Assembly (NCBI GenBank): GCA_964187785.1
Contig: OZ076409.1
Span: 77,936,001-78,000,000 of the forward strand
DNA from: Amphiscolops sp. MND2022
Lineage: Eukaryota
Reading direction: 5' to 3'
DNA: 64,000 nucleotides
The stretch's first letter is position 1; the number at the start of each line of letters is the position of its first letter. Below the pieces are notes generated by a model. It made no database searches. It was not told the DNA's origin and saw only the letters and a list, made by a program, of their open reading frames with translations. A program made the translations under genes and the position numbers. Shown in pieces: positions 25,229-61,100 of the stretch.

Positions 25229-25320
25229 GTCCGGGTCGTCCACCAACGAACTGCCCGGGTCGGCGGACCAACCAGCTGTCCGGGTCGGCAGCCCAACAAG
25301 CTGTCCGGGTCGGCGGACCA
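25229..25320 (-). promoter_or_regulatory. Array of four PBS-like motifs, ~25-bp period
   Basis: Plus strand gtccgggtcgtccacca (25229), gcccgggtcggcggacca (25253), gtccgggtcggcagccca (25278), gtccgggtcggcggacca (25303), each ending CCA; the last is 2 nt from the LTR. Confidence 0.8.
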
Positions 25321-34144: not shown

Positions 34145-36648
34145 AATATTCCGTGGAAAGGTGTGCAATGTTATGTGATTTCGTCTAAAAATCATCAAGA
34201 ATTTCCTTCACCATACAGTCAGCTGGTGCCTTCACAAGTTTGCGGAAACTAACTGGTACGTTTTCGACCCTATCGTACATTTAGGGTTGATATTGCCTAA
34301 AGTCAAAAAGAAGCTGAGTGTTAACTTTTAAAATTTTGGTTCATTTCAAAACAAAAAAATTACCCCTGTAGTTGCTTAGGGAGGGGTAGAGAAAGAAAAT
34401 GAACGAAATCATCTTAACAAATGTCAAGAATTTTAAATAGAGTAGCATCGTTCTGTGCATGGTATTTTTCAAGGAATTGGGGACATTGATCTCTGTAACT
34501 GTTGGTTGCACGTGTGTACAAAATCTCACGTTTTCCTTCTAAACTCTCAATTTCATTTCCCAAACAGATTTTAGTGGTTTTTTAGGTCTATAACTTCCAC
34601 CAAAATGAAGGACCTTACTCTGTGATAGACTTCCTGCGACAATGGACAGAATTTAGTCATTTCAGCTTTTTTGTCAACATAACAACAAGAACTTGGCGCG
34701 AGTTGTAAAAATAAGGCTCATTCAGGTTTTAGATAAAAAGTAAAGTCGATTTTTGAAGAGTCGTCAAGAAGTTGTCGAAAAAAGGTGACACGAAAAATAT
34801 CAAAACGTTCGTCAGAAGAAATCATTCTTACTTGATTTCATTCTTTCAAGACCCTCAGCTTCTATTTGAAGACTTTGAAATCACGCTTCTTGAAGCGCAT
34901 CCCAATCACAAATTATTTTCGAACATTTGTGAAGTAGATTTGCATTACTAGCTACCCAAACCCAAAATCTAAAACTAACTCAACTGAACAAATCTTGAAT
35001 CAAAGATTTTTCATTTCACGAAAAAACAAATTAAGTCAGAGCAAATTAGTATTGTTTTCAAATATGAAACATTGCAGACAAGTATTCAAATTTCAATGCA
35101 TAAGCGAATTTCCAAACCGTCAAATCTATTGCACTATTTCAATTGCTCCCTGTATACTTTCACACAAAAATCATGAAAAAGCGATTATACCAGTATTTGT
35201 GAGAACTTCCATCCTAACTTTGTTCTAAAAAGAATTGTAAATTGAACTAAAAAATAGTTTTGCTTGCGTGCACTTGGGAACACTATATCTCAATTTCCAG
35301 AAAACAATTGACAGAGAGAAAAATTTGTGACGAGAAAGTTTCTGAATTTGTTGTGAAAGAATTCAAACAATTTCGTCACACTAGATAGGAAAATGGCTGA
35401 TAAGCTTCGAAATTGGGCATTTAGTTGCGATAGATTTTTTCAGAAAAAAATTGCATACCAAATTCAATGTTATATTCTCAAGCATTTTCAATTGGCTTTC
35501 TACCAGATTATACGTACTTACAAATTTTGCACTGTCACTACGATTTTGTAATTAGATTGTTTCATGATTAATTATTGAAACGAATTTTATCAGTAAAAAC
35601 CCAATTTTGTATTCGGGGCAAAAAATTTTCAGGTTTGTTAGGTTGTATTGTTGATGATGCTCACCTTGGAATAGTGACCTACTTTCATTTGTTTGGGGAG
35701 ACTTGAATAGAAGGGGGGTGTTGTTGGATAAGAAACAGTATTTATCTGAGGGGAGATAAGGCACATGGTCCAAACATCGTTTTCAGTTCAATATTTCATG
35801 ATTGGTATTCCAGAAACTATTGTTTTTGGTTTGATAAAGTTTCAACTTGGTATAGACTATTTGTTACAACTTTTCTCGATGTTGCTCACGACAGGGGTCA
35901 AAACTGATCCTTGTCAATACCCTGGCTTAAAATACCCAGACCAGAACAACAAGTTGATCAATTCGTTAACCAATCATTCCGGTGACCGTGCTTTGCTCAC
36001 GACAGGGACCAAAATTAAAATTAGTTGAGCAATTATTGATGAGGGCTGATTTGAAAATATATTTTCTTAAAATAGGAAACCCGGTTACAGATTAATCAAT
36101 TGTTATAATTGTACTAATTAGTAGCTATAAGGTATTTTATTTGCACGTATATGCGTAGATGAAATACTTATATACACGTGCGCAACTTGCATTCAATGCA
36201 GTTCATAGGTACTATGCACGGTAGACTTAGTAATGATAAATAATTATTTATTGAATCATTGTTTACTTTGACTGTTTTACGATGTGGTGGTATGAATTGG
36301 ATATAAAATGAACACTGAGTTTTGAATGCATATAAACAAGGTGTAAGTTAGTCAAAACTTTGACCACATTCAATTTTTTGCTAATTGCAGATCGCTTTAC
36401 TAGCAAAAAGTTGAAGTTAGTCAAAGTTTTGACTGAATTACGAAAAAGTGTACTTTTGGACTAACTTCCACTTTTCACAAACTACGTGCCTTGACTAGTT
36501 TACAGTATTTTCCATTACGCGCGTTGGCACAGCTACACCGTTCAGGCATAGACCGTCTTGACTAACTTACGCTGAATGACCATTTTACGGATTACATAGA
36601 ATACGCTGCGTGACTGAATTCCATTTTACCGGGATGTGTATCGTAATG
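33373..36648. mobile_element. 3.3-kb TIR DNA transposon (CATTACG...CGTAATG ends, TA TSD) inserted in LINE ORF1; left end duplicated at 30107-30879
   Basis: atacattacgatacacatccc (33370-33390) is the exact reverse complement of 36631-36651. TA lies on both sides. Subterminal ttacac/ctacac/ttgact motifs recur. Flanks continue LINE ORF1 (VTGNVFL / YPNLVSDLL). Confidence 0.85.
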
Positions 36649-39826: not shown

Positions 39827-40873
39827 GAATTGCCGCCGGGATAGTGGCTGGTTTGAGTAGTTTGTTGGTTGTTTTTTTTGTTACTGGTGTACTGGGATAG
39901 TGGCTAGTATGGGGTTCCCTACTTTCGTTGCAAACCGCGGGTGTATGTCTTCTCCCCCCGAGATGATGATACACATGGCACTCGATTGATGACGAAGGTC
40001 CATGATATCTGATTGAAAAAAATTTAAAATATTTTTGGCTCTTTTCCTTTTTTTTTAGGTACGTCTTTTTCCATTACTTTTGCGTTTTAGGTCTTGTTAT
40101 TTTAGGTCTTATTCCTTTTGAACTTTTAGGTCTTATTCCCTGTCACCTTTGGATGCTTTCGTAGCTCGATCACCAAGTCTTCATCTTCACAGTGGTCTAA
40201 TCATCTTCAGGAACCTTCATAGTTTTACTTCTGTCATCGGCATAGCATCAGTATCTAATTTTGTATGTTCGAGCCGATGTCTCTCCGTTGGTTGCGAGAA
40301 TGCTTTGCTTGTAGCATGCGAAGTAGACTCGCCCTTGGTTCTTAAATGGCTGTCCACCTGACCACTATCAGGAGAATAGACTATGATTTCTGCTGAAGAG
40401 ACGCGAACAAAACTGAGTTAAAGCTTCAAAAGATTTAATAAACTAAAAGATTCATGCGTTTTGCATGTTTTTGAAGTTCAAGAAAGTTCACAGCTCTCAT
40501 CATGTGGGTTGAAGTTTTGACAATGAAGCACCATGTTCAGAATTCATGTACCAGTCAATGAACACAAATGGCACAGGATGATGCAACAGGACTTATGTAA
40601 CTGCATGCTTATTGGCTAACAAATATGTTGTGTGCATTGACAAAACACGTAGTACAATTCGGTTTACACAACAAATAGGCAACGTAAAACATGTATTGGG
40701 GCAAGTGCAATGACAACGGGGTAAGGAAAGGTCAACAAAAGAAGGATAACATTCAGCGCGTTATGACAGTGAACTTATTTGAACTCAATAATTCCGTTTC
40801 AACTAATATTTTCAAATCATAATTCCAACCACAATTATACATGAAGACAGAGTAAAGTTTTGCTATTTCAGGG

Positions 40874-41699
40874 ATGAATGAGCTTGAGGCGGCATTGAGC
40901 CTGACAATGGACCTGGAGCCGGGGAGCCTTCCTTTAACTCGGGTGAAGGAAGGTGGTATAAGGGCTTTCTTGAGGCAACACAATATCCCCATTGTTGTGT
41001 CTGCCAATCTTGTGCTGCGTTACACCAACGGAGCAGCGATGAGGGCTGCAGTTATCTTACGGAGTGAGAAGCAGCTTCCGTCATGCTTCAAGGGTACACG
41101 GATGAAAGACGCTGCTTTTGATGGTCCTGCAGAGGCTCCCTGGCGATATGAGGTACTTTACCCAGACCCGCTATGAGAGCAATACGTAGAGGTCTTCCAG
41201 AAATTTTGGAGGTCACTCAATTGAGCACGTCTCGCTCCTTGCAAGTAGTGGTCAGGCATGGAGTGGTTGGCATAAAGACTCCAACCCAGGAGGAAGCGTT
41301 GTCAGCCAGTTGAAGAGGGAAAGGAAGTTGTGGTTCTTCACCACTCGCACACGTGAGGTGAAGACCCTCTACAGAAAACGCGTTGTACCTCCATTAGATA
41401 GGCTTCGTTCCCTGCCCAGTACGCTCCGGGATGATTTGCAGCAAATCCGGGAGCACATAGTGTATTGCAATCAAGAGCCCGGCGATGTGGTCCTGTTCTC
41501 CCCACTAACCGCGCTCCGTGTGTTGACAGGACCAGGGCCAGCTGCTTTGATGACCACTACACTGAAGGTCGAAAAGGCTGAGGAGGAACGGGTTCAGCGC
41601 CTGGGGGCGCAGTATCAGCCTCAAGCAGTGAGATGTGTCGTAAGGGAGCCAGGTTTACGAGGGCGAAGTAGGGGGAAGAGACGGCTCAGGTTTTCCTGA
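40874..41699 (+). pseudogene. Compact JmjC-like 2-oxoglutarate/Fe(II) oxygenase gene, copy 1 (stop and +1 frameshift)
   Basis: After the frameshift at about 41200 it reads HVSLLASSGQAWSGWHKDSNPGGSVVSQLKRERKLWFF...YCNQEPGDVVLFSPLTALRVLT. HxD at 41271-41279, (G)xKxW strand, Q.PGD motif; distal His position is CTC (41514), one change from CAC. AATAAA at about 41814. Confidence 0.75.
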
Positions 41700-41990
41700 G
41701 GTGAGGATCGCTTTTAAACAAAATAATTTACAAAATATGAATACACACTTCTTCCAAAGTCTTTCAATTGATGTCATTTTAACTTGGACGGTTCTTAGTC
41801 AATATACGAAGTTAATAAATTTTTCCCTTTTTTAGGGGAATCACTTTGAAAATTATTCAGATTATTATATGCGACATTGTATTTGATGTCTTTTGCTATT
41901 TAATATACTTGATGTTTTCTGCTACTTTGTATGTTTACACTCAAATCCGAAAGTCTTTGCAAAACAGTTTTTTAGCCATTTTTTTCAAAA

Positions 41991-42357
41991 ATGGCCGGAT
42001 TTGTCACCTACCTGGAGTCGGGGAGCCTTCCATTGACTCGGGTGAAGGAAGGTGGTATAGGAGACTTCTCGAGGCAACAGAATATCCCCCTTGTTGTGCG
42101 TGCCAATCCTGTGCTGCGTTGCAGCAACGGAGCAGCGAAGAAGGATGCAGTTAGCTTTCGGAGTGAGAAGCAGCTTCTGTCAACCTTCAAGGGTACACGG
42201 ATGAAAGGCGCTGCTTTTGATGGTCCTCCAGAGGCTCCCTGACGATATGAGGCGCTTTACCCAGACCCGTTATGAGAGCAATAGGTGGAGGTCGTCCAGG
42301 ATATTGTCGGTCACTCAATTGACCACGTCTGGATCCTTGCAAGTGGTGGTTAGGCAT
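41991..42357 (+). pseudogene. JmjC-like gene copy 2, 5' half (truncated by Gypsy insertion)
   Basis: MAGFVTYLESGSLPLTRVKEGGIGDF... is homologous to copy 1; ends at TSD ggcat 42353-42357. Confidence 0.75.
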
Positions 42358-43222
42358 TGTCGTAAGCATTGTGATTGGATTGGTCGTCATTTGACGATTT
42401 TGGACAGGCTCACTTCTTGAGTTGTCTCTAGTACCTAGATTTCGCAGAACTTCGCAGATTCAACAAACGAGCAACACCAATACAAGTAATTTTGCATAAT
42501 GAAACATGGCCCAAAATGGCCATTTGACAGGAGGGTTGGTTAATGAGAGTGGCCGGAGTAGTCCAAAGAACTGGTATCTAAATCGTTATTTCTGGTTAAA
42601 GTTATTTGCACTGATTAGTCTCAACAGACTCATGAAAATTTCCAAATATAAATACAATCTTACATGAAAATCAAATTATACAAATATCAACATCAGAACG
42701 ATTTAAACAACGAATTAGAGAAATGGCCTAAATCGGCCCTTTGCCTATTGTCCCGCTCAAAAAATGCATCAATGCGTCAAACGGCTTTATCCGGCCAATC
42801 AATAAAAACAAGTATAGTACTGCAAAAAGAATGATTGTGATTGGCTAATATAACGAGCTCAAGTGACGTCTCCGGGATAAGAGTATCGTTCACTTGATTT
42901 CGTTTCCGTTACACCGTATACTTGCTTGCATTCCGTTTTAATTACATTGAACACATTACTGCACTGCTAATTCGGATACATTAAAACATTCAGATCGGAG
43001 CCTTCGATTGTGAGCCTTAACAGACTAATTAGCGTAAATAAAAATGAAAATATACAGCAACATCAAGTATAAAACCGTGCAAGAAGTGCTAAAATTTGGA
43101 TAAAAAGTACAAGCTTTCAAAATTAGTTTTAGTTTAATAAATCGGGAGAGTACCTGTTGCTGTCTATTGTCCGATTGAGGTCGTCGTAATCTTCGTGCCA
43201 TCACAGGCGGCAGCCTGCGACA
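42358..43222 (-). repeat. Gypsy 3' LTR with ~0.9-kb internal deletion
   Basis: Matches 55731-55825, then jumps at cagatt microhomology to 56724-57484. Confidence 0.9.
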
Positions 43223-43265
43223 CATCGGGAGCCAGAAAAAGCAAACTACCGGCGTTGAGTCCGTT

Positions 43266-43917
43266 TTAATAGGCTTCTCGTCTGAGGGCTGTGATGTACG
43301 CAGGCTCGCTCCGGGGTGTAGACTTCTCCATGTACCAGTTTACTTTTCCCTGCTTTATCTCTTCAACAGATTTGCCACATACCATACAACTGAGGCATCT
43401 CTGGTTACTAAGGTCCGCGTATGGCTGCACATTCTGTATATGGTAGGAAGCATGGAAACAAGCGTCCACCGATTGCGGCATTCGGGTGTCCAGTGAAGGT
43501 CCCCTTTCGTGTTCGGGGGGTGACATAGGCGACTCCAAAACCGGTAAAAATGTGTTACAGAGCTCGATTTTTGCCTTTTTCTTTTCCGGGAAGGCGCGTA
43601 GCAGAGGTTTTCGTCAAGTATTTGAAACCCAGATTGGGGGTAGTCGGCGAAATCGGACGCGAGCTACTGGGACCTGCTTCCATCTCGTCATTTAGTCCCT
43701 CTGTGGTCATGACGCGCCCGGCAATGAGAATTGGACTGTATTTGACTTCTCTCGATTCTGCTAATCAACGCCTTAGTATCCATTGACCAGTCCGAGTCGC
43801 AGAAGTCTGTAGCTTTGTCTTCTTCGTCGCTCGAAATGTTCAAACGGATTCTGCTGAGTCTTTTGAGCTCTGCTCCTCAAAGTGGAAGAGTTTCCTCGAT
43901 AGATTAAATTTCTGCAT
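43266..43917 (-). pseudogene. Sense-strand accessory ORF of unknown function next to the 3' LTR
   Basis: ORF 43266-43538 (CFHASYH...CLSCMVCGK, Cys/His cluster), with upstream frameshifted coding-like sequence from an ATG at about 43917. Confidence 0.4.
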
Positions 43918-44771
43918 TATCAATTTTTTTGCAATTTATGCAATATTAGAAGGCAGCTGATTTTGGTGAGAATTTTGATTAGACTGAATTTATCAAATTT
44001 TCCGAGACAAGCCAAATCGGGCCATTTCCCGGCAACTCGTTTCTGGTGGTTAGGTCGTCAGTAAATTACCCTAATTCGGCATAAACATTTCTGAAAGGAA
44101 TTTTTCAGCAGCAATAAGTCTTTGAATTCTTGAAGACAATCCCACATTCTGACCTTCTCAAGTGGATGAGAGAAGAGTCTTTAATTTGTTAACATTAAAC
44201 ATCTCCATTTCAAGTGGGTAATTAGCAGCGTGCTTGGGTGTAATTAACGGCACACGTCGTGAGGTTTCTTTCAAAATGGCTTCAGCCAATCAGGACAAAT
44301 CTTCGATAAAATGAAAAAATGAATGAGAAAGGTGGCGAAAGTAATAATCCCGGGTAATTCAAAATAAAATAGGGTAAACGGCCATATTCGGCTTCTAACT
44401 AACAAGGTTGTAAATAATGAAGAATCGCCTGCACATTTCGCTGGCAGACTCCATGTACAGTTTTAAATGTGTTAATAGCCATATAATATTAGTCTGGTAA
44501 CATCTTCAGCCACGAACTCCAATATTCAACCTTATTGATTGTTTTTCCATTCCAATTCCGTTTACAATTTATTCGTTATATTTGTATTCTTCTTTCATTT
44601 GTATCTTTGATTACAACACCCATCCGCATCTGTCTTCAACTTCGTTGCTGACCTTCCCTTCTTCGGAGTCTTCCGGGTCTTCTCCCCATCTTCAGCCGAA
44701 CTCGGCCCATTTCCTCAACTACTTCACCCGAAGTAGGACTGAGTCCCAGAACGAAAACTCTTCACAGCAGA

Positions 44772-47700
44772 ATGTCTTCTAACACAGGTTGGTTTTGGAT
44801 TTTATTTTGAACTAATTTAACCTCATCAGGGCTAAATTTCGTTCACTAAGCGCTTTCTGTTTCCATCACTGAACACGTGATAACACAATTCATTCAATTT
44901 TTCGAGACACCTCTGGAATATTTCTAACGCGGCAAAATGGATTTCTTTCAAAGAAGCTCACCGCCTAATTTCATCTTTTCATTTAGAGAATCAACCATCT
45001 GAAACTGAGACACTGCCAGATATTTCCTCCCAATGGCAAACTTCCACAACTTGAAATACCGTTCCTGAAGTTCAAATTCCCTCTTGTGCCCTTTATTCTC
45101 CACAGAGCGTCACCAGTGAGGTTGAGTTAATGCCTACGTTGAAGCTACGGTACAGCACATGGAGACTGTGCAAAGGTCAAGTCAGGAAGAACAAGGTGTT
45201 GTTGAAACGCGGGAAGAATCGATGTCCACTGGTGGTACTGCGGATCAAATGGGCCAACTGGTCCCAATCCCTAGAGGCGCGAGTACCCCATTCCTGCTGA
45301 TGGAGAAGGGGTATCCAATTTAAGCCTGGCAGCTCTGGAGTCCGCCTTGAGGATCGCTACCTCTTCTAGTTCACAACTGCCCAAACTGTTGCCAGTATCA
45401 AGTGAAGACCGCGATGACCACACCAAGGTTGCTCCCCAGTCCGAAGATGACAGTGCTTCGTCCATCTACGAAGTGCCTGCACTGCCCAACAACGAACCCA
45501 AGGTTCGTTTCCTTGCCAATTTGAGCGAAGGGGAAAAACAGCCGAAGAAACGAGGCACGCGGATAGACACCCACTGTACGGAAGTATTTCTGGAATCAAC
45601 GAATTAGGAGCGGAGGCAGGAAACGAATCCGGCTCGAAGACTTCACTCCAACAGTAGCCCACCGCCTCCTTCTCCAGAGGTTTGGACGAACAGTTACCCG
45701 AGTTGTTGGGAAGGTCGCGGGCTGTCCACAAATCATATTTTCTGGAAGAAAAGGCATTCAACCTGCCCCGAGGCCACCCGACTGTGGCTTTCACTGAACC
45801 GCAGGTTGACCACTTGTTGCGGATCTTAACCGACGAGACTCTCAGAATGTCTCATGCTAACATAGATCAAATGATTCTGGACGCTGTGAGAGGGAGACCC
45901 ACTACGACGCCATCAAGGACGGATCATTTCCGATCGAGAACTCGTGCTTCAACCCCTTTCAGGCAGGCTGGAAGTGACTCCAGTGACGCAGAAGCCGAAC
46001 CATTCACGTCCGAAGAGTCGGATGACCAAGAGATGAGATGCCATGCTGAGTCTGGTGATTCTTTTCTGGGGAAAGCGACAGCGCTGGCAAGATGGCGTTA
46101 ATCACAGCGTCAAACAAAACCGCTACTCAACAGAGCCGCACTCAGACTAAGCCTACCGCTACTGCTATAGACGAGGAATTTTGAGGTCAAGAAACTGACC
46201 CAAGTAGCCAAGACGTCACTCTGTCTGAAGTCAGGGAACAAACTCTGAGTGGCAAATCGAAACGAAGTACTCATGGCAAAAGGCCCCAGAAACCCAAACG
46301 GCAGCCCCAACGAGGATTCCCCATGCGCGAGGAGTTCTTCGCTAAGATTGAATGGACTAGGTCCTTCATCTCCGGTCCCGCTGATCCAATCCACAACCCA
46401 CATATGGTCTGGTGCCATATGTGCAGAAAGAATTTTTCCATCAAGTCTAAAGGCCCCCTTGAGGTTCTCCGACACCACCGAACAGAGAAGAACAGGAGGC
46501 GAGACCAGAGGTGGAGATACGAGCACTTCAGGAGCGTCGATCCAGTGAGCGGTAAGATACAGCACCGGGTCAGAGGACGCAACAGCAAGAAATTGAGCAA
46601 AATTGAGTTGGCAGGAGAGATGCCGAAATTTTTTCATTCTGAGTTGGTTGACATCGGAGAACGTTTCCCGTTCTATGATGACTTCATCCGAGGCCGGACC
46701 ACTCCCCTTGTGACCCCTGAGTCGCATGCCAAAACACAACTGTGTTTGGTTGGTGAGTTCATCCCGTCTCACGGAGACCTGTCAGTCCTTAGAAACATGT
46801 GGGAGAAGGTCAGTTCATTCACAGATAATCAAGCTGCCCTCTGTGACTTTGATTGGGGTGATGAACGAGTAACTGTAAGTATCTCCCTTGGAAAATCCAT
46901 AGCTGGCAAGTCAAATTTTGTCCTTGGTAGTTTTTTTCTATTTCAGGCGAAATTTCAACATTTCTTCAACTGTAACATGAATGACATAGCTGAACATGTG
47001 GCTTCAGAGCAATGCTTCGGCTTTGAGTTTGAAGACAAGGGAGCTAGCCGATTAATGTCCTTGCGGTTTTGGAAAGGCCAAGAACTCTGTCGAGTGACAG
47101 TGTGTAGAAGGGGATTGCCGTTGCTTGAGGAGCCCCGAGTTAGTTCGAGTAAGTAACCGATAATTTCTTTTGGTGAAGATTACTTTGGGTGGGAGCCGGC
47201 GATTTGCCCATCAAGGCATGTTTAATTTGGGATTTCTTTTTAGGCCATTTCCAGTTACAAACTGGACCTCCAATCTCTCCCCACACTTTGCCAGGAGCTT
47301 ATAGATGAGTGGAAGTCAGTCACCACTTATTTGATTTCGCATACTCCACAGCAACAAGGACAGCGCGTCAGGACGCGGGTGAGTTGCCTAACTTGTCTTA
47401 TTCTTGACATAAGGTATAGGCACAATGATCAAGGTGGTGGAAGTAGCTGGGTTTCGACATCAGTTATTATGTTTTTCATGCTCTGTTTCAGGTGCAAAGT
47501 TTCGAGTGGGCCCTCATCTGTGATGAGTTTTTCCTCATCAAACTGGAGTTCTTCTATCACCTAATTAGTGATTGTTAGTATTTTGTGATGCGATCTCGAA
47601 TTTCCCTCTTAGGGCCGGAATAGGTCACATTCCTGTTTCAGATAACTCCAATTTCGTCGTCAACTTACAGCAGCGACGTGATTCCTCTTTTTACCTCTGC

Positions 47701-48774
47701 GGAGAGGTTTCACGCTTTGTCTACAATTTGTGTTTCCACTGCTACAACTCTGACACAATTTCTCTCGAAAACTCGTGGTTTCTCTTGCTAAGCTTCGAGA
47801 CTGCTGAGGGGACATTCATGCCCGTAGACGAGTTTCTGACCCGATTACAGATGACAAACAAAGTGTCCAAAGCCTGTAAGTTAAGAGCGGAGGGTATCCA
47901 ATCAGGAAAGAAAGCAGATAAGTCACTCGTCTAGAAGACTGCTCTGACTATGAAAAATGATTTCGTCCGATATGGGCAAGCGTACTTACAGTACCTCATC
48001 AGTGAAGTCCTCCGTCAAGCTGGCTTAAGCTCAAACATTGTCAAAGGGCTGGCTGCCTTTGACCCTTTCATTATGTTCAAAAGCCCAACAAAGGTAGCAC
48101 TTCGGCATTTCCACATGCTTTACAATACGTTCTTGCTACGCTAATGGGTAACAACTGCCAATGAGTCTACATGCTGCGATGGCGATGGCGATGCGTATGT
48201 GGGACTGCTTGACTATTTGCACGTCAATTATGCTCCTGACTCTGATGTGACGCAACACTTCAAAGACTGGATAGACTTCCTTATGTCACTCGAGTATATG
48301 CAGAGCCACGGTCACATGTCGCATTTGTTCAAGCTATGCTGTCTCTGTGCTACTTCAAGCAGCCCTGATTACCCCGTAGTTACTATGAAATCCCTCAGCA
48401 CATCAGGTTCCCAGAGCCGGTCCACAGAAGTCGTTTTGCCTTCCCAGTCTCCCAGTCAGGACTACTTGTCGGGAGTATCAGGCTCCCTCGCCCATTGTGT
48501 CACAGCTCCTAATCCTAACGACTTTTCTCTGTTGTCTGCTTCATTTGGTCAGTCAGCATTCTCTCCTGCATATGATCCATGGACTTACGTTGATGTCTTC
48601 GGTAGGTGTAAGGTATACAAGTCCCTTAATTCAACGTATCGCACTGCCCTTTCTGGTTCAGCTGGGAGAGTGAGGGGCCTGGGTAGTTTGGATGTGACGG
48701 CAGTGGGTGACGTGCCTGCCGTCCAGTCACCTAGTGACACTAAACGAAGGCCAATGGAGAGGAGTTCATCGTGA
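44772..48774 (+). pseudogene. Antisense, intron-containing passenger gene: acidic N-terminus, BED-like zinc finger, hAT-transposase-like body
   Basis: Chained + ORFs 45347-48774; WCHMCRKNFSIKSKGPLEVLRHHRTEK (CxxC-x13-H). GT-AG introns predicted at 44788-44986, 46875-46946, about 47149-47243 and 47379-47491, with pyrimidine tracts. Confidence 0.6.
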
Positions 48775-49109
48775 TCGAGGGCCTCTTCCGTCGCTAGAGA
48801 ACCCACCACCAGTTCTCCTAATAATTAAATGTACATATGTCTTTATGTACGCTAGACTGTAGACTTTGTTAATTCTTTGTTGTATTTATTCGTTGTTGCC
48901 AATTTCGTTGCTATTTGTATTTATTGATAACGATTTGTTTCTGTTCTGATTCCATTATCCCATGTTTATCCACTTTGAAAGGGGATCCTTCCTCGTGCGT
49001 CCCAAAATTTATTCAAAAGTTACTGCTAATTGGGACTAAAAGATGAAAAGGAAATTTTAAAGAAAAAAGAGAGCAGCGTTCTTTCTTGGACCCAATTTAA
49101 TCTTTCCTT

Positions 49110-52100
49110 TAGTATCTGAAGTCTTCTGAGTAGTTTGGATTAAGATTAGGCCTGAGATTATATCTTCCACCTCTGGGACTCAAATTTTAATTGCTTTCAT
49201 CTTTTTACGATATTTCGCGCACAATAAAATCATCCCCCCTTTTTGGAGAATTTTGTGAATCGTTTTTGTTAGCAGAAGTTCCTTCTGAAAAATTTACATC
49301 GTTTTCCTGTCTTCCGGATAGATCCGACAAAGATTTTCTTAATTTTTGTGGTAAACGGCCGATTCCGGCCAATCAGAATTTTCATTTCTAGCAGCTTTAC
49401 TAGCTTCAATTCTATTGCTGATGTCACTTTTCATTCTTTCATTCTGACTTTGTGCTGCGTCGTTGACGTCATTCGGACTGTCAGTCGTGATTATATAATC
49501 CGCTTCATTCTCGTGTGCCTCACTTGAATTCGCTTCTGCCGTAACCGTTCGCCATTCGGCAAGCTAGTCAGAATAGGCATGTTGCCTCGTGGAGCTAGCT
49601 GGTCACCGAAGTTTGTCTCCCACGTTATTGTATATAAGTCGTCTTGCGGAATGACAATTTCCTCATCAAGCTGCAAGCGCTCGTCTCAGAAATTGTACTC
49701 ATGCGGTTGATTGGAAACAAACTTTTTAAGGCGAATTCGATGCAAAATCTGAGTTTTATTTGTATTGAGCCTGCGGACGATGTATTTCTCATTAGGTAAA
49801 ACTTTTTAGACATTAAATGGTCCAACCCAACGGTAGTCTCTGAAAGGAATTTTTGATTCTTGGTGATCCGCTTTTGGCTGCAGTACAAAACAGTAATCAT
49901 CTTCTATGAGAGGTACCGCTTTTGCTTCGCGGTCATAATATTCCTTGTATTTGATATAGGATTCCATGATATTCTGCTTTGTTTTGTCAATCAGGAGTTT
50001 TGTCCGATTCTGGATTTCCTCGTCAAATTCAGTAGTTGGATTGATTTGCTTGTTTGGATTAGTTCCAAGCTTGTGGTCTAAATTGTTGTATAGGATTCGA
50101 TTCTTCCATGGAACACCCTTGCTGGTTCACAGCCAATACTCGCATGATAGCTCGTGTGATAGTTCAGAACTGCTAATAGCATGTATTTATGCCATTGTCG
50201 GCGGCATTCCCCACATGCCATTTTTATATTCTTCCTCAGGGAAGCGTGTGTCCGTTCTAATTTCCCAATTGTTTGCGGGTGTTTCGTCGTTGCACATTTG
50301 AGAGTAATTCCCAAAATTTGCGTAATGTACGCAATAATCGTCGAAGTGAAAGCAGTTCCCTTGTCGGTAATAAGCGTTGTTGGTAAATACGCATGTTTTG
50401 TCAATATATCATTGAGCGCTTTTGCTACATGGATTGCTGAAGCATCCGTAAGAGGGTAGGCAAACAGATTTCTCGAAAAGACATCAATTGCTATGAGAAC
50501 ACTTTCATATCCTCCACTTGGGGAAAGGTTCGGCAATAAGTCGATCTGCATGGCGTCTTTGGCTACAAGGTCCCATACCGGCAAGTTAGGCAGCTCGAGC
50601 GTGATTGTTGCATTAGGGACTCGCTTGTCTTCCGCGCATTGTTCACACCCTTCTTCCCACTTTTAAACACATTTTTGGCATGCTAGGGTAGTAGTATCTC
50701 TGTCTGATCTCTTGCTACATCTTTGATATGCCAGGATGCTTGTGCGAGTAAATGTTGTGAGAAAAGTTTTTGGTGGTACTTTACATTCCCTGTTTTATCA
50801 AAATATTGCCTATTCAGGTTATCTTTCTTGATTACAATTCGTTCCAAGTTGTTAGCATAATAATTATATCGGGCATCTTGTTGCAGTACGTCTTCTGAAC
50901 ATTCTTCATTAAGGAGATTTACCTTCAATTGTTGAAATACTGCACCTTTGGATTGCTCAATAATTATCTGGTTCGTCTTCCGTAATTGGACTTGGATCTC
51001 AGGTTGTTGTTTGACCAGATTTTAGAAAGTGTTAGGATTGATACAATAGGTTCTTCTAAGGCGGGATTTTTCCTGATTGCTTCTTTCCGCGCCCAGTTTT
51101 GTCCTTCGTCTCATCATCATCATTTGTGTAGAAGATTTGTTCTTTCTGTGAGACTCCTGCTGATTGGACATTGATTTCAATTGGTAAGGTTTCTACATCC
51201 TCGCGGATTTTCATGACTAACTTGCCCTTCGCATCAACTTCCAATCGGGATACGTAATCCGCTGCCGTATTTTGTGTTCCTGGGATTTGCGCTATGCCAA
51301 AATTGAATTGAATGACATAGTCACAAGCGTTCCACAGGGCTGGGGGTACAATTTTTGTTTGAAACAATCTGGTTACGGCTTTGTTTTCAGTTAGAATAAT
51401 GATCGATTTTGGCGCACCCCAGTAAAAATGCCCAAATTCTTTGAATGCGAGATAAATTGCAAGAAATTCTTTTGCATAGACAGACACCTTTAACTGGGCA
51501 GGGGTGAAGTTTTTTGAACCGTAAGCGACCGGTCTATAGGATTTGCGGATTGTTGTGAATTTCTGACTTGGGACATCTTCGATTAGCACTGCATATCCAG
51601 CAGCAACAAAACTTGCGTATGTCATTATTGCGATTTGTTTATTCGCATTCGGTTGTTGTAGGGCCAAAACGCAGCATTTGTCTAGTGCTCGGTTGATTTC
51701 CTCAATAAGCTGAACAAATTCTTTCAATACTAGGACTTTTTTGTCACTTTTCAGCATCTTATAGAATGGAGCAATGCGTTTGGACAGTCTTGGGACATTG
51801 TTTCTGTAGTAATCAAGAATCCCAAATAACGTTGCAAAGCCTTTTTCGACTTCGGAAATTTGGTTTCTTCGAGAGAGTTTTGAACATTCTGCCTTTGAGG
51901 TTTGACGCCTTGTGGGGTAATTGTTCGTCCAAGGAAGTCAATCTCTGTAGCACCAAATTGGCATTTGCGCATTGTCAATTTAAGGCCTGCTTCCTGAATG
52001 CATTTGAATGTTGCTCCCAGGTTAGCAATGAGATGATCAGCGTCGTTGGCTGCGATGTATCGTCCACATACTGGGCACACTGATCCGCTTCAATAACTTA

Positions 52101-53897
52101 ATCAAAGTGTTCTCGCATAAAGCTCGAGAATGCGGATAGCGCCCTACTAAGGCCTTGTGCCAAATGTCTGTGGGCAAATGTGCGGCTTGCGAAATTGAAG
52201 GGTAACATTTCAATGGATCGCTGGTCAGCCATCTGGAAGCAATGATACGCCTGTGAACAGTCTAATTTGCAAAAGAGCTTTTTGCCCGCCATGTGTAAGG
52301 CGGCATCAACTAGTGTACTGACGGGATGATTACTGTTTATATATTCATCGGAAATTCAGTTGTTGATTTTTCTCAAGTCAAACAGGAGTCGCAGTTTCCC
52401 ATTTGGTTTCTTTTGCGCAAAGATCGGGCTGGCGTATTTCGAAAGTGGCAAAGTGGTGATTATTCCATAATTATGCAGCATTGCTAGTTCGACTAGGATG
52501 TCCTCCTTTAGGTTTATTGGTGCTGGGAGGCTCTGGCTATAGGCTGGGAGTCGTCCTTGGGTGTCAGTTTCACCTTTAACGCCTCATTCATGCCTATGTC
52601 GAATCTTTGTCTCGCAAAGATAACATGAAAATCTAATAATTCCTCGCTTTGTAATTTTTCGTCAGGAGCTAAAGTGGAATCTTTGCAATCACAATTTTCT
52701 AGGAATTTTGCTCTAGATTCCTCGTTTTTTGTAGGATCAAGGGTCTCTAGGTCCTGTAATGCCTGTAATTCTCGTAGGATCCTCTTCTGTACCGCCGTAT
52801 GTTCCTCTCGGTTTACTGGGTTTTCCGGAGTTGGACACCAATAATTTTCAGCGTTCTGAGGGTTTTTATTGGTCTTGATGAGGCTAATGACATAATGGGC
52901 TGCCTGCTCTCGGTCGTTTTGTAAGAGGTGCCAGGTCGATGCCGGATCAACAGGTTTGACGTATTTCATTTGTTCTGGCGTCATAACAGAGAACCTAGCA
53001 GTATGGAGTCCTTTTTTGAGTTTATAGGGGAGATCCGTGAAGTTATTCACAGGTATCGATAAATTGCCATCGTTCAGAGTGACCAAGGCTGGGCAAAAGT
53101 TTATGTCGCTTTCTTCGTGTAAAAGGTCACTGGGTTGTAATATGCCAGTGACCGCAATTTCAAGATAAAGTAGGGAACTTGTCCTGATTAGGACTCAATC
53201 ATTTAGGGGAATGGTAACTTCTGTCGGAATAAGGATCGGTTCCAGGACATTGGAATATCGGATATCCGCTGTTTTGAGCTGCATAAAGAAGAACGGTAAG
53301 TTCACGATCCCTTGTCTCATGTCCAGAACTGTATGATTTTGCTGAAAGAACATTAGTCCTATGATTGGTCCTGTCAAATGCTCCATTAAGCTCGATTGTA
53401 CTTGTAGGAGTCTCTAATTGTCCATTTGCGACCATGATCTGAAAATTTGGAGGCAGGCCTTCCCGGATAACAGATTGTGGAGAGAGAAGTCGAATTTTCC
53501 GGAGGTCCGTTTCGGGGATTGCACTGGATAATGCCCCAGTGTCGATTAGGCCGTCTATGGTTAATTCCCCAAAGTCCATTGGGAAGTACAACATGCGTTT
53601 TTTGCATTTAAGGTTGATTTTGGTTGACAGTGGTATACAGTCTGGCTCACCATCTTTGGTAATGAGTACATTCTGGAACTGTTGCTCGTCTAGTAGCGAT
53701 TGGGGAGTTGTTTCAGCACAGTTTTCAGGATTCTCGGTTCCTAAGGGGTTTGGGAACACCGGATGGTTTGTACTATCACTCATTTGCCAATTTTCGATTA
53801 GAACTATCGTTTTATTGTTGTGGGTGATTGGAGGGTTCTCCTGGACTGTTTTGTTGTCATGCTCGATGTCGTCTAGGACGTATTGGAACTGTAGCAA
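49110..53897 (-). pseudogene. pol: Gypsy pol (protease, RT, RNase H, integrase with GPY/F), frameshifted
   Basis: LIDTGALSSAI; LFCKLDCSQAYH; CAQYVDD (about 52060-52080); IDFLGRTIT; KEFLAIYLAF; TAADYVSRL; IDVFSR...TDKGTAFTS...HPQTIGKLERTH; WVGPFNV; terminal RGGRYNLRPN. Confidence 0.95.
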
Positions 53898-54339
53898 ATC
53901 TTGGTTGTTTAGCTCTGTGTCCCAGTAGGGCTCTCTGCCTTAATCTGGATCGATATACGTGGGGTTGTAATCGTCAACTAAGGGAATGGGCTTGAATCGG
54001 GTAGTGAAGGTAGTTGTGTAATCAAGATCCCAAACAGAAATTGGTTTTTGGAACAAATGGGTATTATTATAAGTAACAATGATAGCTTTCTCCATCTGCT
54101 GCTGCCAGACAACAGAAGGATAGCCCCTCAATTGTTGTTTATAGTTATGAAAAGTTTGTGTTGGTCCCATTTGATGTATTGTCGGACAGAGACTAGTTGG
54201 TCGAATTGGAGTCAGGGCGAAGCTAGTTTTTTTTATTCGTCTTCCTTGGATGAAGACTGGGAGTTGGACGATGTTGAGTTATGGTGGGGTTTTGGAGCTT
54301 TTGAATCGGGATCGTTATCAGACGAATCCTCAGGCCTGG

Positions 54340-56336
54340 TGCGCTTAGGTTTAAGATGCGCGCCGGCACCCCACCAACATCATTCCTCCGGGTGATTGGT
54401 CTTGCCACAAGTCCCGCATTTGGGATAGGTTTTCTTCTGAGTAGATTTGCCTTGTTGGGCATCCTTCTCATTTTTTCACTTTTTCACAGTCATTGACCAT
54501 ATGGCCCTTTTCCTTGCCATAATTGCAGGTGATGTAGGAGGTTTGCCCAGTAGAGAGAAGGGTCTTGGGCTTAAAAGATGAGGATGTGATCGTTGCCATT
54601 GGTAGGTCATCTGACTCCTCAAGGGCGTTAAGCTCAAGTTCTCCCACTAAGTGAGCAACTATCTCGTCATAAGGGGCATTTTCTAATCTGGCCTTATTGA
54701 CTGATCTTTTGAGTTTGGGAGGCAGTTTTGCGTATAGGAGACTGTCAATCATTTTCTGTGCGTGGTCTCCAAACGCCTTTTCTGCGCCTTGATTCAGTTC
54801 TTCAAGGAAGTCTGGTAACTTCATTGTGTTTGGGTCGAAGACCAAACGGTGCCCTTTATGTTTGGCAGTCGCTTGTGACTCAGGCTTGACGTATTTACGT
54901 CGGAAAATGACTAATACGTCCTCAAGGGTTTGTCTATTGGCTGAGCTGATGTTTCTGAACGTCTGAAGAGCATTTTTCCTCAAGAGTGAGTGAAAAGGAT
55001 TGGTTTTCATCTGTTCCGTCATATCAGGCTGCATCTTGATCATGGTATGAAAAAGATCTTCGAACAACTCAAATTTCTCACTTTTGCCGTCAAAGGTCAT
55101 GGTAATAGAATTGACCGGGCGTATGGTGAGTTGTTGTGCTGTAAGTCGATTCTGCATATTCGTCAAGACATCTGCCAATCTGCTAATTGGGTCTGGATCG
55201 ACAGCGGTGGCGATTCTCTCTTGTGCTGGGATCGTCGTGTCAAAGTTGATGTCCTCATAGGACTGATCGAGGTGATTTCGAGATGGTATACGTCCCGTGA
55301 GAATCTCAGGCATGGACGTCCAAAAGTCTTTGCAAAAGAGTTTTTTCAGCCATTTTTTCAGAAATTGCCGGATTTGTCAACTACCTGCAGTCGAGGAGCC
55401 TTCCATTGACTCAGGTGAAGGAAGGTGGTATAGGAGACTTCTTGAAGCAACAGAATATCCCCCTTGTTGTGCGTGCCAATCCTGTGCTACGTTACAGCAA
55501 CGGAGCAGCGAAGAGGGCTGCAGTTAGCTTTCGGAGTGAGAAGCAGGTTCTGCCAACCTTCAAGGGTACACGGATAAAAGACGCTGCTTTTGATGGTCTT
55601 CCAGAGGCTCCCTGACGATATGAGGCGCTTTTCCCAGACCCGTTATGAGAGCAATAGGTGGTGGTCGTCCAGGATATTGTCGGTCACTCAATTGACCACG
55701 TCGCGCTCCTTGCAAGTGGTGGTTAGGCATTGTCGTAAGCATTGTGATTGGATTGGTCGTCATTTTGACAATTTTGGACATGCTCACTTCTTGAGTTGTC
55801 TCTAGTACCTACATTTCGCAGATTTTCAGAATTTGTTTCCGGTCTCTCGGCTGGAACGTTCCATCCTCTTCTGGTCACGTGTCCTGAACCGGCCATAATG
55901 GCATTTTGAATCTGGGATAAAACCTGATTACTAATGGCATCATTTATGGCCGTCTGCATTTGAACACTGTCACTGTTCATCACCTCATCCATCTCCCTAG
56001 ATATTCTAGAATTCAATTCACTCGACAATCTTTTAAACTCAACATGAGTATTAGTACCGACTGAAATCTGGCCATGATCGGCATTAATCCCTGAACTGAT
56101 ATCTCAACGGTTCCGGTCAAGTCCTCGTCATCATTTCCAAAGTTGTTACTTGTGGCGCCTTCAGGCCTTCTAGGAAAGTTGCTATCTAAGCTTTCCTCTC
56201 TATCCATCCCATTAAAATGGTTTTCTCCAAACATAACGTCAAGATTTTCAATGTCTGAGAGTAATATAAGTCCTCTAGACTTTCTAGTTTTCTTTTGCTT
56301 TCTTGAGGTAGGCATTCGAAGAAAGTCCGAATTCAA
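54340..56336 (-). pseudogene. gag: Gypsy gag, starting inside the 5' LTR; interrupted by a JmjC 5' segment
   Basis: MPTSRKQKKTRKSRG...NHNAYD lies within the LTR; then PEILTGRIPS...FDGKSEKFELFEDLF; knuckle-like CNYGKEKGHMVNDC and CGTCGKTNH. Confidence 0.85.
55320..55730 (+). pseudogene. Extra JmjC-like 5' half plus upstream flank (duplicate of about 41945-42357)
   Basis: ccaaaagtctttgcaaaagag...ggttaggcat is homologous to 41945-42357 and ends at the same ggcat/LTR junction. Confidence 0.85.
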
Positions 56337-57484
56337 ATATTTTAAATGGATTGTATTCGGAAAACAGTATTTTTAGGTTCTAACAGAAATGCGTTCACGG
56401 TTAAACTGAATAGTAGAAGAATAAGAGAAATTGTGTCTTCCCAAGGAAAACAACTATCATATATACTCCTTTGGGCATGACATACATAACATAACAATTC
56501 AAAAATGCATAAACAACATTCCAAAAAGCACCTGACTGGGTCATGAGACGCGTATCAAAGCGTTATTGGAATGTGATTGGTCAAGTCTTGTGGCCATTCA
56601 AAGTCCTTTCTTCAATATGACAACAAATATTTTAAAGCGGCAAAGTACATCAAGCGAGTGTCATATTACAAATATTTTAAGAATGTAAACTACTTTGTAT
56701 TGGCACGTGCCTGCGTATGCGGTCAGATTCAACAAACCGGCAACGCCAAAACATGTAATTTTGCATAATGAAAAATGGCCCAAAATGGCCATTTGACAGG
56801 AGGGTTGGTTAATGAGAGTGGCCGGAGTAGTCCAAAGGACTGGTATCTAAATCGTTATTTCTGGTTAAAATTAATTGCACTGATTAGTCTCAACAGGCTC
56901 ATGAAAATTTCCAAATACAAATACAATCTTACATGAAAATCAAATTATACAATATCAACATCGGAACGATTTAAACAACGAATTAGAGAAATGGCCTAAA
57001 TCGGCCCTTTGCCTATTGTCCCGCTCAATAAATGCATCAATGCGTCAAACGGCTATATCCGCCAATTAATCAAAACGAGTACAGTACTGCAAAATGAATG
57101 ATTATGATTGGGTAATATAACGAGCTCAAGTGACGTCTCCAGGATAAAAGTTTCGTTCACTTGATTTCGTTTCCGTTGCACCGTATACTTGCTTGCATTC
57201 CGTTTCAATTACATTGAACACATCACTGCTATTTCGGATACATTAAAACTTTCAGATCGGAGCTTTCGGTTGTGAGCCTTAACAGACTAATCAGCGTAAA
57301 TAAAAATGTAAATATATAGCAACATCAAGTATAAAACCGTGCAAGAAATGGTAAAATTGGGATAAACAGTTCAAGCTTTCAATATTAGTTTTAGTTTAAT
57401 AAATCGGGAAAGTACCTGTCGTTGTCTCTTGTCCGATTGAGGTCGTCGTAATCTTCGTGCCATCACAGGCGGCAGCCTGCCACA
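55731..57484 (-). repeat. Gypsy full-length LTR (1754 bp)
   Basis: Starts tgtcgtaagc, ends gcctgccaca; flanked by ggcat on both sides (55726-55730, 57485-57489). Confidence 0.9.
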
Positions 57485-57948
57485 GGCATGGAGTGGTTGG
57501 CATAATGACTCCAATCCGGGAGGAAGCGTTGTCAGCCAGTTGGAGAGGGGAAGGAAGTTGTGGTTCTTCACGGGTGCGCAGATACGAATCGAATCCCTCA
57601 GTTCGAAAACAAGGGTACGTCCTCGGGTCGACCAGTGCAAGTTCCGGAAATAGATCGGCTGAATCGTGTCGAATTGATGAAATTTCGGAAATATAGGGAC
57701 TGTCTCGGATTGATCAATAGATGCGTCAAATTAGCCTGACAAAAGACATGCGGTGATGCGCACTGCTTGTTCGATTCGAGAAATGGGATAACAAATTTCG
57801 ACCCGACGTGTTCTACCGAATTCGATCTCAGTTCGTTCGACCTGTGTATTTCGACCTCCTGTATCAGCCTCAAGGAATGAAACGTGTCGTAAGGGAGCCA
57901 GGTTCACGAGGGCGATGTAGGGGGAAGAGACGGTCCAGGTTTTCCTGA
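57485..57948 (+). pseudogene. JmjC-like gene 3' half (internal deletion and ~280-bp foreign insert 57581-57860)
   Basis: AWSGWHNDSNPGGSVVSQLERGRKLWFF (HxD 57501-57509), then resumes YQPQG...FS*. The 3' flank to about 58150 is homologous to 41700-41912. Confidence 0.75.
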
Positions 57949-58154
57949 GGTGAGGATCGCTTTGAAACAATATAATATACAAAATAAGAATGCACACTTC
58001 TTCAAAAGTATTTCGCTTGATGTCATTTTAACTCGGACGGCTCTTAGTCAACAAACTAAGTCAATAAATCTTTCCACTTTTTGGGGGGGATATTTATTCA
58101 GATTAATATATGCGACAATGTATTTGATATCTTTTGCCTTTTAATATACTTGAA

Positions 58155-61100
58155 TTAGCCTAATTGTTGTAATAGGCTATTTGGGATTGCTTCAGAGATG
58201 GCAATGATTTGAATTTGAGACAACTGGACAACATCTCTGACGCTGTTTTGTTGGTTTGTCGCTGCACTTGGGCTGAAAGAACCATCACAACCCGGTGAGA
58301 TAATTCCATTTTTATTTCAATTTAACAATTCAAGGTTTTGTTCTATATACGGATTGCTTCACTGTTGTGATTGTTTTTTGGGGAGATTGACACACACCCA
58401 AATGTGGTATTTCAGCCATTGGTTAGGTTTCGAGGTTGAGTTGTGATGAAAAACAACGAAACCTGCAACGCTCCGAAGTGTCTGAAGCCCTCAGGGTTGA
58501 TAGACTGGATAAATTGTAGGCTTTGCAACAGTTGGGTTCACATAAAATGCGCCAATTTATCAAGAACGGAAGCTCGGAGTCTTGTCGAGTTTAAATGTAG
58601 TAGATGCTGTTTAGTGAACACAGACCCTCAGTGTCAGGATGATAACTTTAGACCGGACACTGTTGATCACTTGAAAAGAGTTCCTAAAAATTCACGGATC
58701 CCCCCTGAATCCTGAAAACTTGATACCCAACTTTAATGATACTTGTGAAACCCCGTCAAATATTGCCTGGTGGTGCTTACTGCTCTCGTCTCTAAGCTAT
58801 TTTTTGGAAAAACTAACTCAAGGAGGTAAACGTGAGCGGTTTTCACTTAGTGCAATTATCAACAAGCGTACTCGGGATGGTGTCATTGAGAAAAAACCGA
58901 AACGCGACAGAAAACCGCAGCAGAAAAACGAGTTTGATTGACGAATGCGTTCCATTTGCATTATATTAGACGAAGGTAATGTTGAGGCCGGAATCAGAAT
59001 GGCAGTAGGCGACAACAAGATTGCAGAATACACGATCGGCAACTACGCTGCCCTTAAGCTGAAACATCCGCAGAGGGAAACTTGCTCTGTTCCGGACAGA
59101 TATCGATTGTTTTTCAACCTCGGAGTTTTTCGTCCACAAGGCTCTCATGTCCTTCCCCAACGAATCTAGTGCATGGTTGGATCGCATTTCGCCCCAAATT
59201 TTGAAAGATTTGACTGCCAAGTCGAACGGGCAAACTGGACTGAATATTCTCAGAGCCTTAGAAAATCTTGTGAATGTGATTATTGAAGGAAAAGGACCAT
59301 TCCAACTTCGGCTGTACTTCTTTGGTGCGAAACTAATTGCGCTAAAAAAGCCCGATGGAGGATTTTGTCCTATCGCTGTAGGCAATGCTTTCCGCCGATT
59401 GTCCGCAAAATGTGCCGGATACCATGTCTTCGAATCACTTCAAGCAAGATATGGAAATCGACAAGTAGGTGTAGGCACCAAAAGGGGCGCTGAATTGGCC
59501 TCACATGTTTTCCGTTGTTTGATAGAAAGCCTTCAGCCCAAAGAAAACGTAATTTTAAAAATTGACTTTGAAAACGCTTTCAATTCGATACACCGGCAAT
59601 TCATGCTAGAGAAATTTTTTAAAATACACCCTGAAGTTTATAAGTATTCACACTCGGCGTAGAGTCAGCCAAGTGTTCTTTTTTACGGTGATTCAGTAAT
59701 CAAATCTTGTGAAGGGACTCAGCAAGGAGATCTTGAGTCTCCAGCTTTGTTTTCGGATTCCATTCAGGATCTGATTGACAGTTTGGAGTAATAAGTTTAT
59801 GGTACTTTGACGATGGAAATCAAAGTGATGATTACAGAACCGTTCTGAAAGATCTCGAAAAAAATTGTTGAAGCGGAAAAAACGCTGGGACTCAAAATTA
59901 AACCCACGAAGTGTGAAAGTTTTATCCCTGATGACATCACTGAAAAACGACGATCGACAATTTTAGCATCTTTCCAAAAACTTCGCCCCGGGATTAAAAC
60001 ACCAAAGAAAGTTGAACTTATCATTCTTGGTTCACCGCTTGGCCCGAAATCACAACCAGACTTATTGGAAAAGAAAATTAATGAAATGGAAAAAGTTACC
60101 GGGATTGAAAAACTAGATGCGCACTATGGTTATTCTATGTTGAAAATATTGCTTCAGTTTGCCAAAGTTGTTGTACTTCCTGAGAACCAGTACCTGTTTT
60201 AATCATCCAGCTCTCTTGGAGAAATATGACAAAATCGTGCGCGACTGGCTTTCCAAGGTGTGTTACATGAACTTCGACGATATTTTGAGTACTCAGCTGG
60301 CTCTGCCTGCTGAGATGAGTAGTCTTGGGGGTTTCAATCGCATCATTATTAGCACTTCCCGGCTTTCTGGCCTCAGCTTTTGGTGCGAGTGACTTTCTCA
60401 CGACGATTTTCTCGGAAACATTCGAAGATGCTTCGTTTACAAAAGTGCTTGAGAAGTGGTTGAGTTTGACGAAAGAACAGGAAAGTCCTCTCGATAGAAC
60501 CCAGAAAAATTGGACACAACCTGTCTACGTCAAAACCGCACAAGATTTGATTTCTAGAATGGATAACAAACGTTCGAAATTTTTTAGCGCTCATCAAGGC
60601 ATATTCGGGTCTCAATGGCTGAACGTCGTTCCTTGCAAGAACCTAGGCCTGAAACTTGATGATCAGCAACTTCGAATTTCAATTGGTTTGCGTCTCGGTG
60701 CCAACATCTGCGTTGCACATACGTGCCACTGTTGTAAAAGTGGAGTGTACGCCTTTGATCTAATTGCTTGGGTCTAGTGGAAATAGATCTAACTGTTAGG
60801 TCCAACTTTCAGGTCTAATTCTATCTAAAATACTTAGGTCTAACCCCTTTATGATCTAATATGTGTTCTGAAAGCGAAAATGAAATGTGGGGCATATGCG
60901 ATGTATGCACGCTTGCCCTCGCCGTCGCAAAGACCAGCTCCCACTACGATCGCTTCGCGATCTCGGTTCCCGCTAGGTCTTTGCTCCTGTTCGACCTCGC
61001 TTAGCAAGATGGGAATATAAGTGGGGCCCAAAGGGGCCGCGGGGCACTAGAGGAAATGGGGACATATCCGAGGCACGTTTTATACTTTATATCACTTTTT

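Follow-up and report, generated by a model that had tools for sequence, protein, structure and literature searches.

Antisense open reading frames (ORFs) located between pol and the 3' long terminal repeat (LTR) have been described in the plant retrotransposons Tat/Retand, Grande and RIRE2 and in Botrytis Boty (PMC7264820; PMC11963269). In Retand this region spans 2.9-6.6 kb and the antisense ORF is conserved in nearly all clusters; the plant ORFs (TRP28, PF04195) are predicted to bind DNA, and Grande gene23 is nuclear and has its own promoter (PMC11963269; PMC7264820). According to these two papers, the antisense ORFs resemble no other known transposon, a nested-transposon origin is rejected because no such similarity was seen, and neither the origin nor the function of antisense accessory genes in LTR elements is regarded as settled. 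Here we describe a related arrangement in an animal. The window, a 64,000-nucleotide stretch of the Amphiscolops sp. MND2022 assembly (GCA_964187785.1, contig OZ076409.1, positions 77,936,001 to 78,000,000), contains a decayed Ty3/Gypsy LTR retrotransposon with a six-exon gene running antisense to it. On balance, we favour the reading that this gene is a likely disabled descendant of a hAT transposase, likely inherited with the Gypsy family, and predicted to regulate the element by binding DNA.

Like plant Retand-type elements, the locus carries a conserved antisense gene in the interval from pol to the 3' LTR; unlike them, its gene has five introns, encodes ~1,300 residues and is likely of hAT origin, and Pfam finds no TRP28 (PF04195) in its products. 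HBZ of HTLV-1 is a spliced antisense gene. The window gene resembles HBZ in being antisense, in lying in the 3' region and in its predicted regulatory role, and differs in that the protein is unrelated and its promoter is seemingly internal, outside the 3' LTR. Bdelloid LTR elements reportedly also carry extra domains or ORFs. With hAT transposases and their derivatives (Hermes; ZBED1/DREF, FAM200/GTF2IRD2, ZMYM1-like, DAYSLEEPER) the gene apparently shares the order of a zinc finger, a helical region, putative RNase H-like strands and a helical, dimerisation-like C-terminus, as well as Atlas neighbours; unlike them, it has no significant sequence match, its catalytic motifs are apparently lost, no terminal inverted repeats (TIRs) were found, and it is carried by a retroelement, being neither a DNA transposon nor a single-copy host gene.

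In the available text of PMC11963269, HBZ is named as an analogue of the antisense ORFs and the word 'intron' is absent. The planarian Burro is, like this element, an animal LTR element with captured accessory functions, although its domains sit in the large polyprotein of ORF1 or in an accessory ORF upstream, and neither 'antisense' nor 'hAT' occurs in the available text (PMC6431247). LTR elements make up about half of the genome described in PMC9911081. We found no spliced, hAT-derived antisense gene in an animal Gypsy element in the literature searched, which did not extend to Repbase, subscription papers or supplements, including acoel repeat tables, where such a gene may already be annotated.

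Exon structure of the antisense gene

The end of pol (~49109) and the edge of the 3' LTR (43222) lie 5.9 kb apart, and plus-strand ORFs lie in this interval, as the original prediction from the sequence had it. The gene is read on the plus strand and its stop converges on that of pol, 280 nt away. Five GT-AG introns (199, 72, 95, 113 and 68 nt) separate its exons (Table 1). That the gene is antisense and spliced and belongs inside an LTR-bounded Gypsy element was also predicted, and agrees with the LTRs and GGCAT duplication that enclose it and with its conserved splice signals.

The homologues record the splice sites because they were called as unspliced ORFs. At the exon-2 donor, Val (GTN) occurs in 100 of the 104 homologues in which the motif was found (of 120) and Val-Ser (GTRAGT) in 81 of those proteins; past this point, conservation drops from 95% to ~10-20% over a few columns. 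Gln (CAG) precedes the start of exon 3 in six of seven read-throughs and Val-Ser follows its end in five of five, and exon 6 begins with SD, LD, PD or TD in 28 of the 33 proteins that could be placed (of 120), which fits an acceptor of the expected phase. The joins of exon 4 to exon 5 and of exon 5 to exon 6 are confirmed by distant relatives without intron 4 (P0514) or without intron 5 (P0472, P0545 and P0485), since these read on at those points; the varying presence of the two introns reflects intron gain or loss within the gene family. The predicted splicing and architecture are, in sum, well supported.

Exon 1 is the exon with the weakest support, as it lies outside what the homologous ORFs can check. 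The predicted 16-nt sequence is present and is followed by a GT, in a weak donor (GTTGGT), and intron 1 ends in TTTAG at 44986, in phase with the frame of the homologues. Tentatively, an ATG at 44938, kept at the start of most homologous ORFs, offers an alternative start. The zinc-finger peptide also lies within the gene, with the pattern C-x2-C-x16-H-x5-H in place of the CxxC-x13-H spacing first proposed. The gene had been taken to end at 48774; a stop is found there, which proves premature, and the stop equivalent to that of the homologues lies at 48826-48828. This copy is a pseudogene, with frameshifts and stops in exon 2, an exon 3 that is ~100 codons short and three premature stops in exon 6.

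Conservation across subfamilies

Although the copy in the window is dead, the gene stays open in many subfamilies. Homologues of exon 2 fall into 206 clusters at 90% identity among 593 candidates, and the 120 clusters listed comprise 1,609 members, fragments included, with 66 ORFs of at least 640 aa. Exon 6 homologues form 193 clusters among 6,367 candidates; a profile search with this exon returned 659 representatives at 50% identity, of which the best 150 were inspected and ten clusters were looked up. The listed matches to both exons, like these ten clusters, are unnamed ENA proteins. Recent bursts of near-identical copies are evident, for example in the P0028 cluster.

In 108 of 120 homologues the finger retains all five Cys/His positions. 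The finger region averages 74% identity, the small folded domain 69%, the low-complexity parts 30-35% and the N-terminal region 30%. The homologous N-terminus, 430-480 residues long, is acidic and rich in S, T and P (D+E 14-16%, K+R 6-7%). The conservation of the finger and helical core over subfamilies that are ~40-70% identical indicates that the protein is under selection in the element lineages, and such selection would in turn suggest a benefit to the element.

Evidence on a probable hAT ancestry

The gene probably descends from a hAT transposase. Among language-model neighbours in the Atlas, Dimer_Tnp_hAT and FAM200 clusters lie close to exon 6 (0.88-0.90, with 0.90 for Dimer_Tnp_hAT and 0.89 for FAM200) and DUF659, DUF4371, ZBED1 and zf-BED clusters close to exons 2-3 (0.78-0.82, with an unnamed cluster at rank 1), so that the families neighbouring the two halves follow hAT order. 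Pfam weakly matches zf-BED to two of 40 homologues tested (best E 0.11). In hhalign comparisons, the best local match of exon 6 (E 0.12) falls ungapped on the Dimer_Tnp_hAT segment, with an equal reversed control, and that of exon 2, also non-significant, falls on the stretch after the finger. The hAT template for these comparisons came from eight hAT-like fragments in prokaryote genome contigs (eight of 18 loci; PF05699 in five of five tested), a search of viral contigs having given nothing usable. These loci (L006, L007, L008, L012, L015, L019, L020 and L021) are eukaryotic hAT transposase fragments in prokaryote assemblies, and likely represent host contamination.

When aligned by eye with the hAT fragment L006, exon 3 homologues read F-G-L/V/I-E-F-E at the first site, where L006 has F-S-I-I-L-D, and A-C/I-S-G-C-P at the second, where it has G-Y-D-N-G-S; at the CxxH site they show C-F/Y-R-F (CxxF/CxxY-like) in place of C-G-C-H. 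The DDE register thus reads Glu, Ser and a variable residue, with no conserved acidic residue at the hAT catalytic Glu. If the gene is hAT-derived, the enzyme is likely to be catalytically dead.

Several results weigh against this ancestry. The closest Atlas neighbour of exon 6 is an unnamed cluster at 0.91, Atlas scores of 0.9 or below count as leads only, and the recognition value for exon 6 falls under the tool's mark. No hAT family was matched by Pfam in sets of 57, 40 and 40 members apart from the zf-BED hit above, and PF05699 was not matched in the homologues. The hhalign scores against hAT (E 0.12-0.42) do not surpass those of reversed or shuffled controls, and the catalytic-site reading covers 5-7 homologues from few subfamilies in an alignment without statistical support. 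Searches of PDB sequences were blank bar one chance match. Structure models were of low confidence (mean predicted local distance difference test scores of 46 and 54, with low-confidence strands at P0028 residues 710-727); with these models Foldseek returned nothing at E of 0.001 or below, and VIA reached at best Z 4.5-5.0, on generic helices. The hAT assignment, tentative when first proposed, accordingly gains from language-model neighbours in hAT order and went without confirmation in the Pfam, PDB, structural and profile-profile tests.

The same blank searches in Pfam, among PDB sequences and with hhalign would be expected if the gene were true Gypsy cargo and a likely regulator encoding an unrelated zinc-finger protein that resembles hAT by chance. 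We consider this unlikely, given that each half has hAT families among its neighbours, in the right order, and that the motif registers are colinear; moreover, the hhalign test had little power because the hAT template is very shallow (effective number of sequences 1.4-2.6).

Predicted role and its implications

Starting from a hAT ancestor, the present arrangement could have arisen when a hAT element inserted antisense into the 3' internal region of a Gypsy element and later lost its inverted repeats. Introns that are antisense to the genomic RNA escape splicing and so persist through reverse transcription, which explains why this gene could keep its own. Integrated copies would express the gene from an internal promoter, and the spliced protein of ~1,300 residues would enter the nucleus through its basic stretches, multimerise through the hAT-type helical region and bind DNA through the finger, with the acidic low-complexity N-terminus recruiting host factors. 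The most likely outcome would be that LTR promoters of the family are activated or de-silenced in trans.

With its acidic, S/T/P-rich region, basic stretch, finger and helical body, the protein looks like a nuclear regulator that binds DNA, and we favour trans-activation or anti-silencing of family LTRs over integration targeting as its predicted function. A targeting factor of hAT descent would tether integrase or complementary DNA to chosen chromatin, a role that the finger and the predicted multimerising body could serve, and it is in the nature of transposase scaffolds to link element ends with target DNA. This option nevertheless seems quite unlikely: the 430-480-residue acidic N-terminus suits a transcription factor better, and separate antisense expression would be uncoupled from particle assembly.

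It is possible, and we hold this tentatively, that an animal Gypsy lineage domesticated a disabled hAT transposase as a spliced, sequence-specific activator or anti-silencing factor, a transfer from class II to class I elements. If so, antisense accessory genes could arise through a nested-transposon route, with a DNA transposase repurposed by a retroelement and not by the host. The gene would then have persisted in dozens of subfamilies and thousands of copies and may partly account for how far the lineage has expanded, and numbers of this order make the question of origin and function testable. Genes of this kind also present an annotation hazard, as their spliced multi-exon models may be counted as host genes.

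Probable carriage by the Gypsy family

It is likely, from the sequence comparisons that follow, that the gene is carried family-wide by these Gypsy elements. First, gene and pol copies have a common spacer: the best window match of read-through tails falls at the gene end or spacer for seven of 15 gene tails and two of three pol tails, and the tails of gene protein P0383 (to 49060) and pol protein P0174 (to 49031) overlap there. Second, gene and integrase proteins lie on equal-sized contigs in 35 of 53,136 pairs, compared with 18 of 53,355 within-set pairs, a background that falls to nine once probable fragments of a single copy are removed (Fisher p 0.02 or 6e-5); contig sharing between gene and pol is thus 2-4 times background. 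These tests excluded proteins that occur on multiple contigs, as well as cluster members that are short and unrelated (P0259, P0756-P0758 and P0760). Sharing of pol with exon 2 (16/117) comes near the positive control of exon 6 with exon 2 (19/117), and one contig size, 14,233 bp, is common to exon 2, exon 6 and integrase. Under a null based on assembly size, p is 3e-5 at 1.1 Gb, and the within-set coincidences imply an assembly of 0.95-1.9 Gb. Third, distances in the gene are congruent with those in a variable pol linker (rho 0.26, 42 of 3,000 permutations; rho 0.29, 85 of 3,000). Finally, the copy numbers of gene and pol are of one order, two pol clusters alone having 850 and 1,547 members.

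Several points count against family-wide carriage. The tail margins are modest (28.6 versus 25.7 elsewhere for P0174, 32.4 versus 30.6 for P0383), the P0167 tail did not map, and the spacer was not the top match when only the final 25 residues of tails were used. Contig sharing was judged from equal contig size, which is a proxy only, and the excess is not significant if the assembly is 0.6 Gb (p 0.15). Two of the four congruence tests were null (best-hit identities, rho -0.005; integrase plus linker, rho -0.04), and the variable-linker region was picked after the first null. No related locus was confirmed in metagenome, viral or prokaryote contigs; the one integrase obtained, L001, is distant (51% identity) and, at 1 kb, too short for use. 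The idea of a stable capture therefore stands as regards the position of the gene inside an LTR-bounded Gypsy, and its presence throughout the family is likely from the indirect evidence of tail overlap, contig sharing and one congruence signal.

A high-copy hAT-like DNA element of independent origin could also have nested by chance in one Gypsy copy, a scenario consistent with the hAT-like affinity, the very high copy number, the repeat-rich window and the indirect nature of the linkage data. The original prediction named as its refutation a gene bounded by its own TIRs and target-site duplication (TSD); we looked for TIRs paired with an 8-bp TSD by comparing 43223-44772 with 48791-49112 at four settings and found none, although an old copy could have lost them. 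In addition to these bare borders, intact homologues appear to have lost the catalytic motifs throughout, the spacer recurs in independent copies of gene and pol, and contigs are shared in excess, all of which make a chance nesting improbable. A catalytically dead transposase present in many recent copies would need another mover: the recent bursts would not stem from a cut-and-paste enzyme without an active site, and passive copying by Gypsy would suffice.

A passenger gene that serves itself or the host and affects the element only via convergent antisense RNA would suit the stops converging 280 nt apart and the double-stranded RNA regulation suggested for plant antisense ORFs (PMC7264820), yet is very improbable given the residue-level conservation of finger and helical core over subfamilies ~40-70% identical.

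Architecture of the element and its surroundings

The flanking repeats are LTRs, because both have TG...CA ends and a 5-bp GGCAT duplication lies outside each, within the 4-6 bp typical of Ty3/Gypsy; on the same grounds we rejected the alternatives of split repeats or of tandem units from the JmjC genes. An LTR on the plus strand (TATA at 43068, AATAAA at 43136) was set aside in favour of the minus strand because a minus-strand ORF leaves the right LTR toward gag. The domain order on this strand is that of Gypsy, with gag followed by protease, reverse transcriptase (RT), RNase H and integrase, all broken by frameshifts (Pfam RT_RNaseH E 2e-13, rve E 6e-10). Intact pol relatives are single ORFs of ~1,690 aa, and identity across the main blocks of the match is 72-84%. 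A dUTPase-like segment lies at ~52950-53390 (minus strand), in the protease/RT interval, and Pfam dUTPase is matched (E 8e-6) in the relative P0234.

The LTRs differ by a Kimura two-parameter (K2P) distance of 0.060 over 761 columns in a self-comparison of the window. The loss of ~900 bp from the 3' LTR, at a CAGATT microhomology, and the 412-bp flank copy are two later accidents, the 3' LTR junction being the probable source of the latter, through template switching or gene conversion. An ORF that starts inside the 1.75-kb 5' LTR (55731-56315, minus strand) is likely the gag N-terminus, and the missing ~900 bp would hold most of it. One expected signal is missing, a point against the favoured reading: no polypurine tract was found upstream of the 3' LTR (43223-43260, minus strand), and no purine run of at least nine lies nearer than ~120 nt to the 3' LTR in this decayed copy. 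The primer-binding-site position is taken by the flank duplication, and no tRNA genes were found in the window.

Table 1. Features of the Gypsy element, its antisense gene and the insertion site (window positions)
Feature	Positions	Strand	Remarks
Decayed tandem JmjC-like gene copies	40847-41912, 41946-42357, 57485-58153
Left TSD, GGCAT	42353-42357	.	Identical 5-mer at 57485-57489
Whole element, Ty3/Gypsy LTR retrotransposon	42358-57484	-	Decayed copy; LTR pair and 5-bp target duplication
3' LTR, TGTCG...CGACA	42358-43222	-	~900 bp of 5' LTR sequence missing
ORF-Z, decayed extra ORF sense to pol; Cys/His-rich end, enters 3' LTR	43150-43920	-	Limits approximate
ORF-Z/antisense gene interval (head to head), presumed internal promoter	43921-44771	.	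Basis: position only
Exon 1, 16 nt, tentative (ATGTCTTCTAACACAG)	44772-44787	+	GT at 44788; phase suits exon 2
Exon 2: acidic low-complexity region, small folded domain, basic stretch, zinc finger, helices	44987-46874	+	Frameshifted copy
Zinc finger, C-x2-C-x16-H-x5-H	46410-46493	+	This copy lacks the last ligand
Exon 3: putative RNase H-like strands	46947-47148	+	~100 codons shorter than homologues
Exon 4	47244-47378	+	AG/GT limits; P0514, without the intron, reads from exon 4 into exon 5
Exon 5	47492-47573	+	P0472, P0545 and P0485, without the intron, continue into exon 6
Exon 6: helical region, hAT-dimerisation-like segment, basic tail	47642-48828	+	Premature stops at 47932, 48142, 48772
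Spacer, 280 nt, separating converging stops of antisense gene and pol	48829-49108	.
pol: protease, dUTPase-like segment, RT, RNase H, integrase; decayed	49109-54125	-
gag, C-terminal part	54230-55316	-	Pfam DUF1759 E 4e-5; lower limit approximate
412-bp duplicate of left flank (41946-42357)	55319-55730	.	Occupies expected primer-binding-site position; K2P 0.074
5' LTR, 1754 bp	55731-57484	-	Self-comparison; TG...CA ends
Right TSD, GGCAT	57485-57489	.

ORF-Z has no family match in Pfam (best E 0.04). In the interval between it and the antisense gene, AAATGGC occurs at 44274 and CCAATC at 44286.

The insertion splits the second of two tandem JmjC-like gene copies, the first of which matches Pfam JmjC (E 0.0012). 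Elsewhere in the window, large tandem duplications lie at 17428-26172 and 27640-35713, with periods of ~3.0 kb and 3.27 kb, the second of which contains endonuclease-like (non-LTR) fragments. Other retroelement remnants, comprising a DUF1759 gag-like ORF, an RT fragment and endonuclease fragments, are found on the plus strand at 9498-10148, 59063-59662 and 62429-63348.

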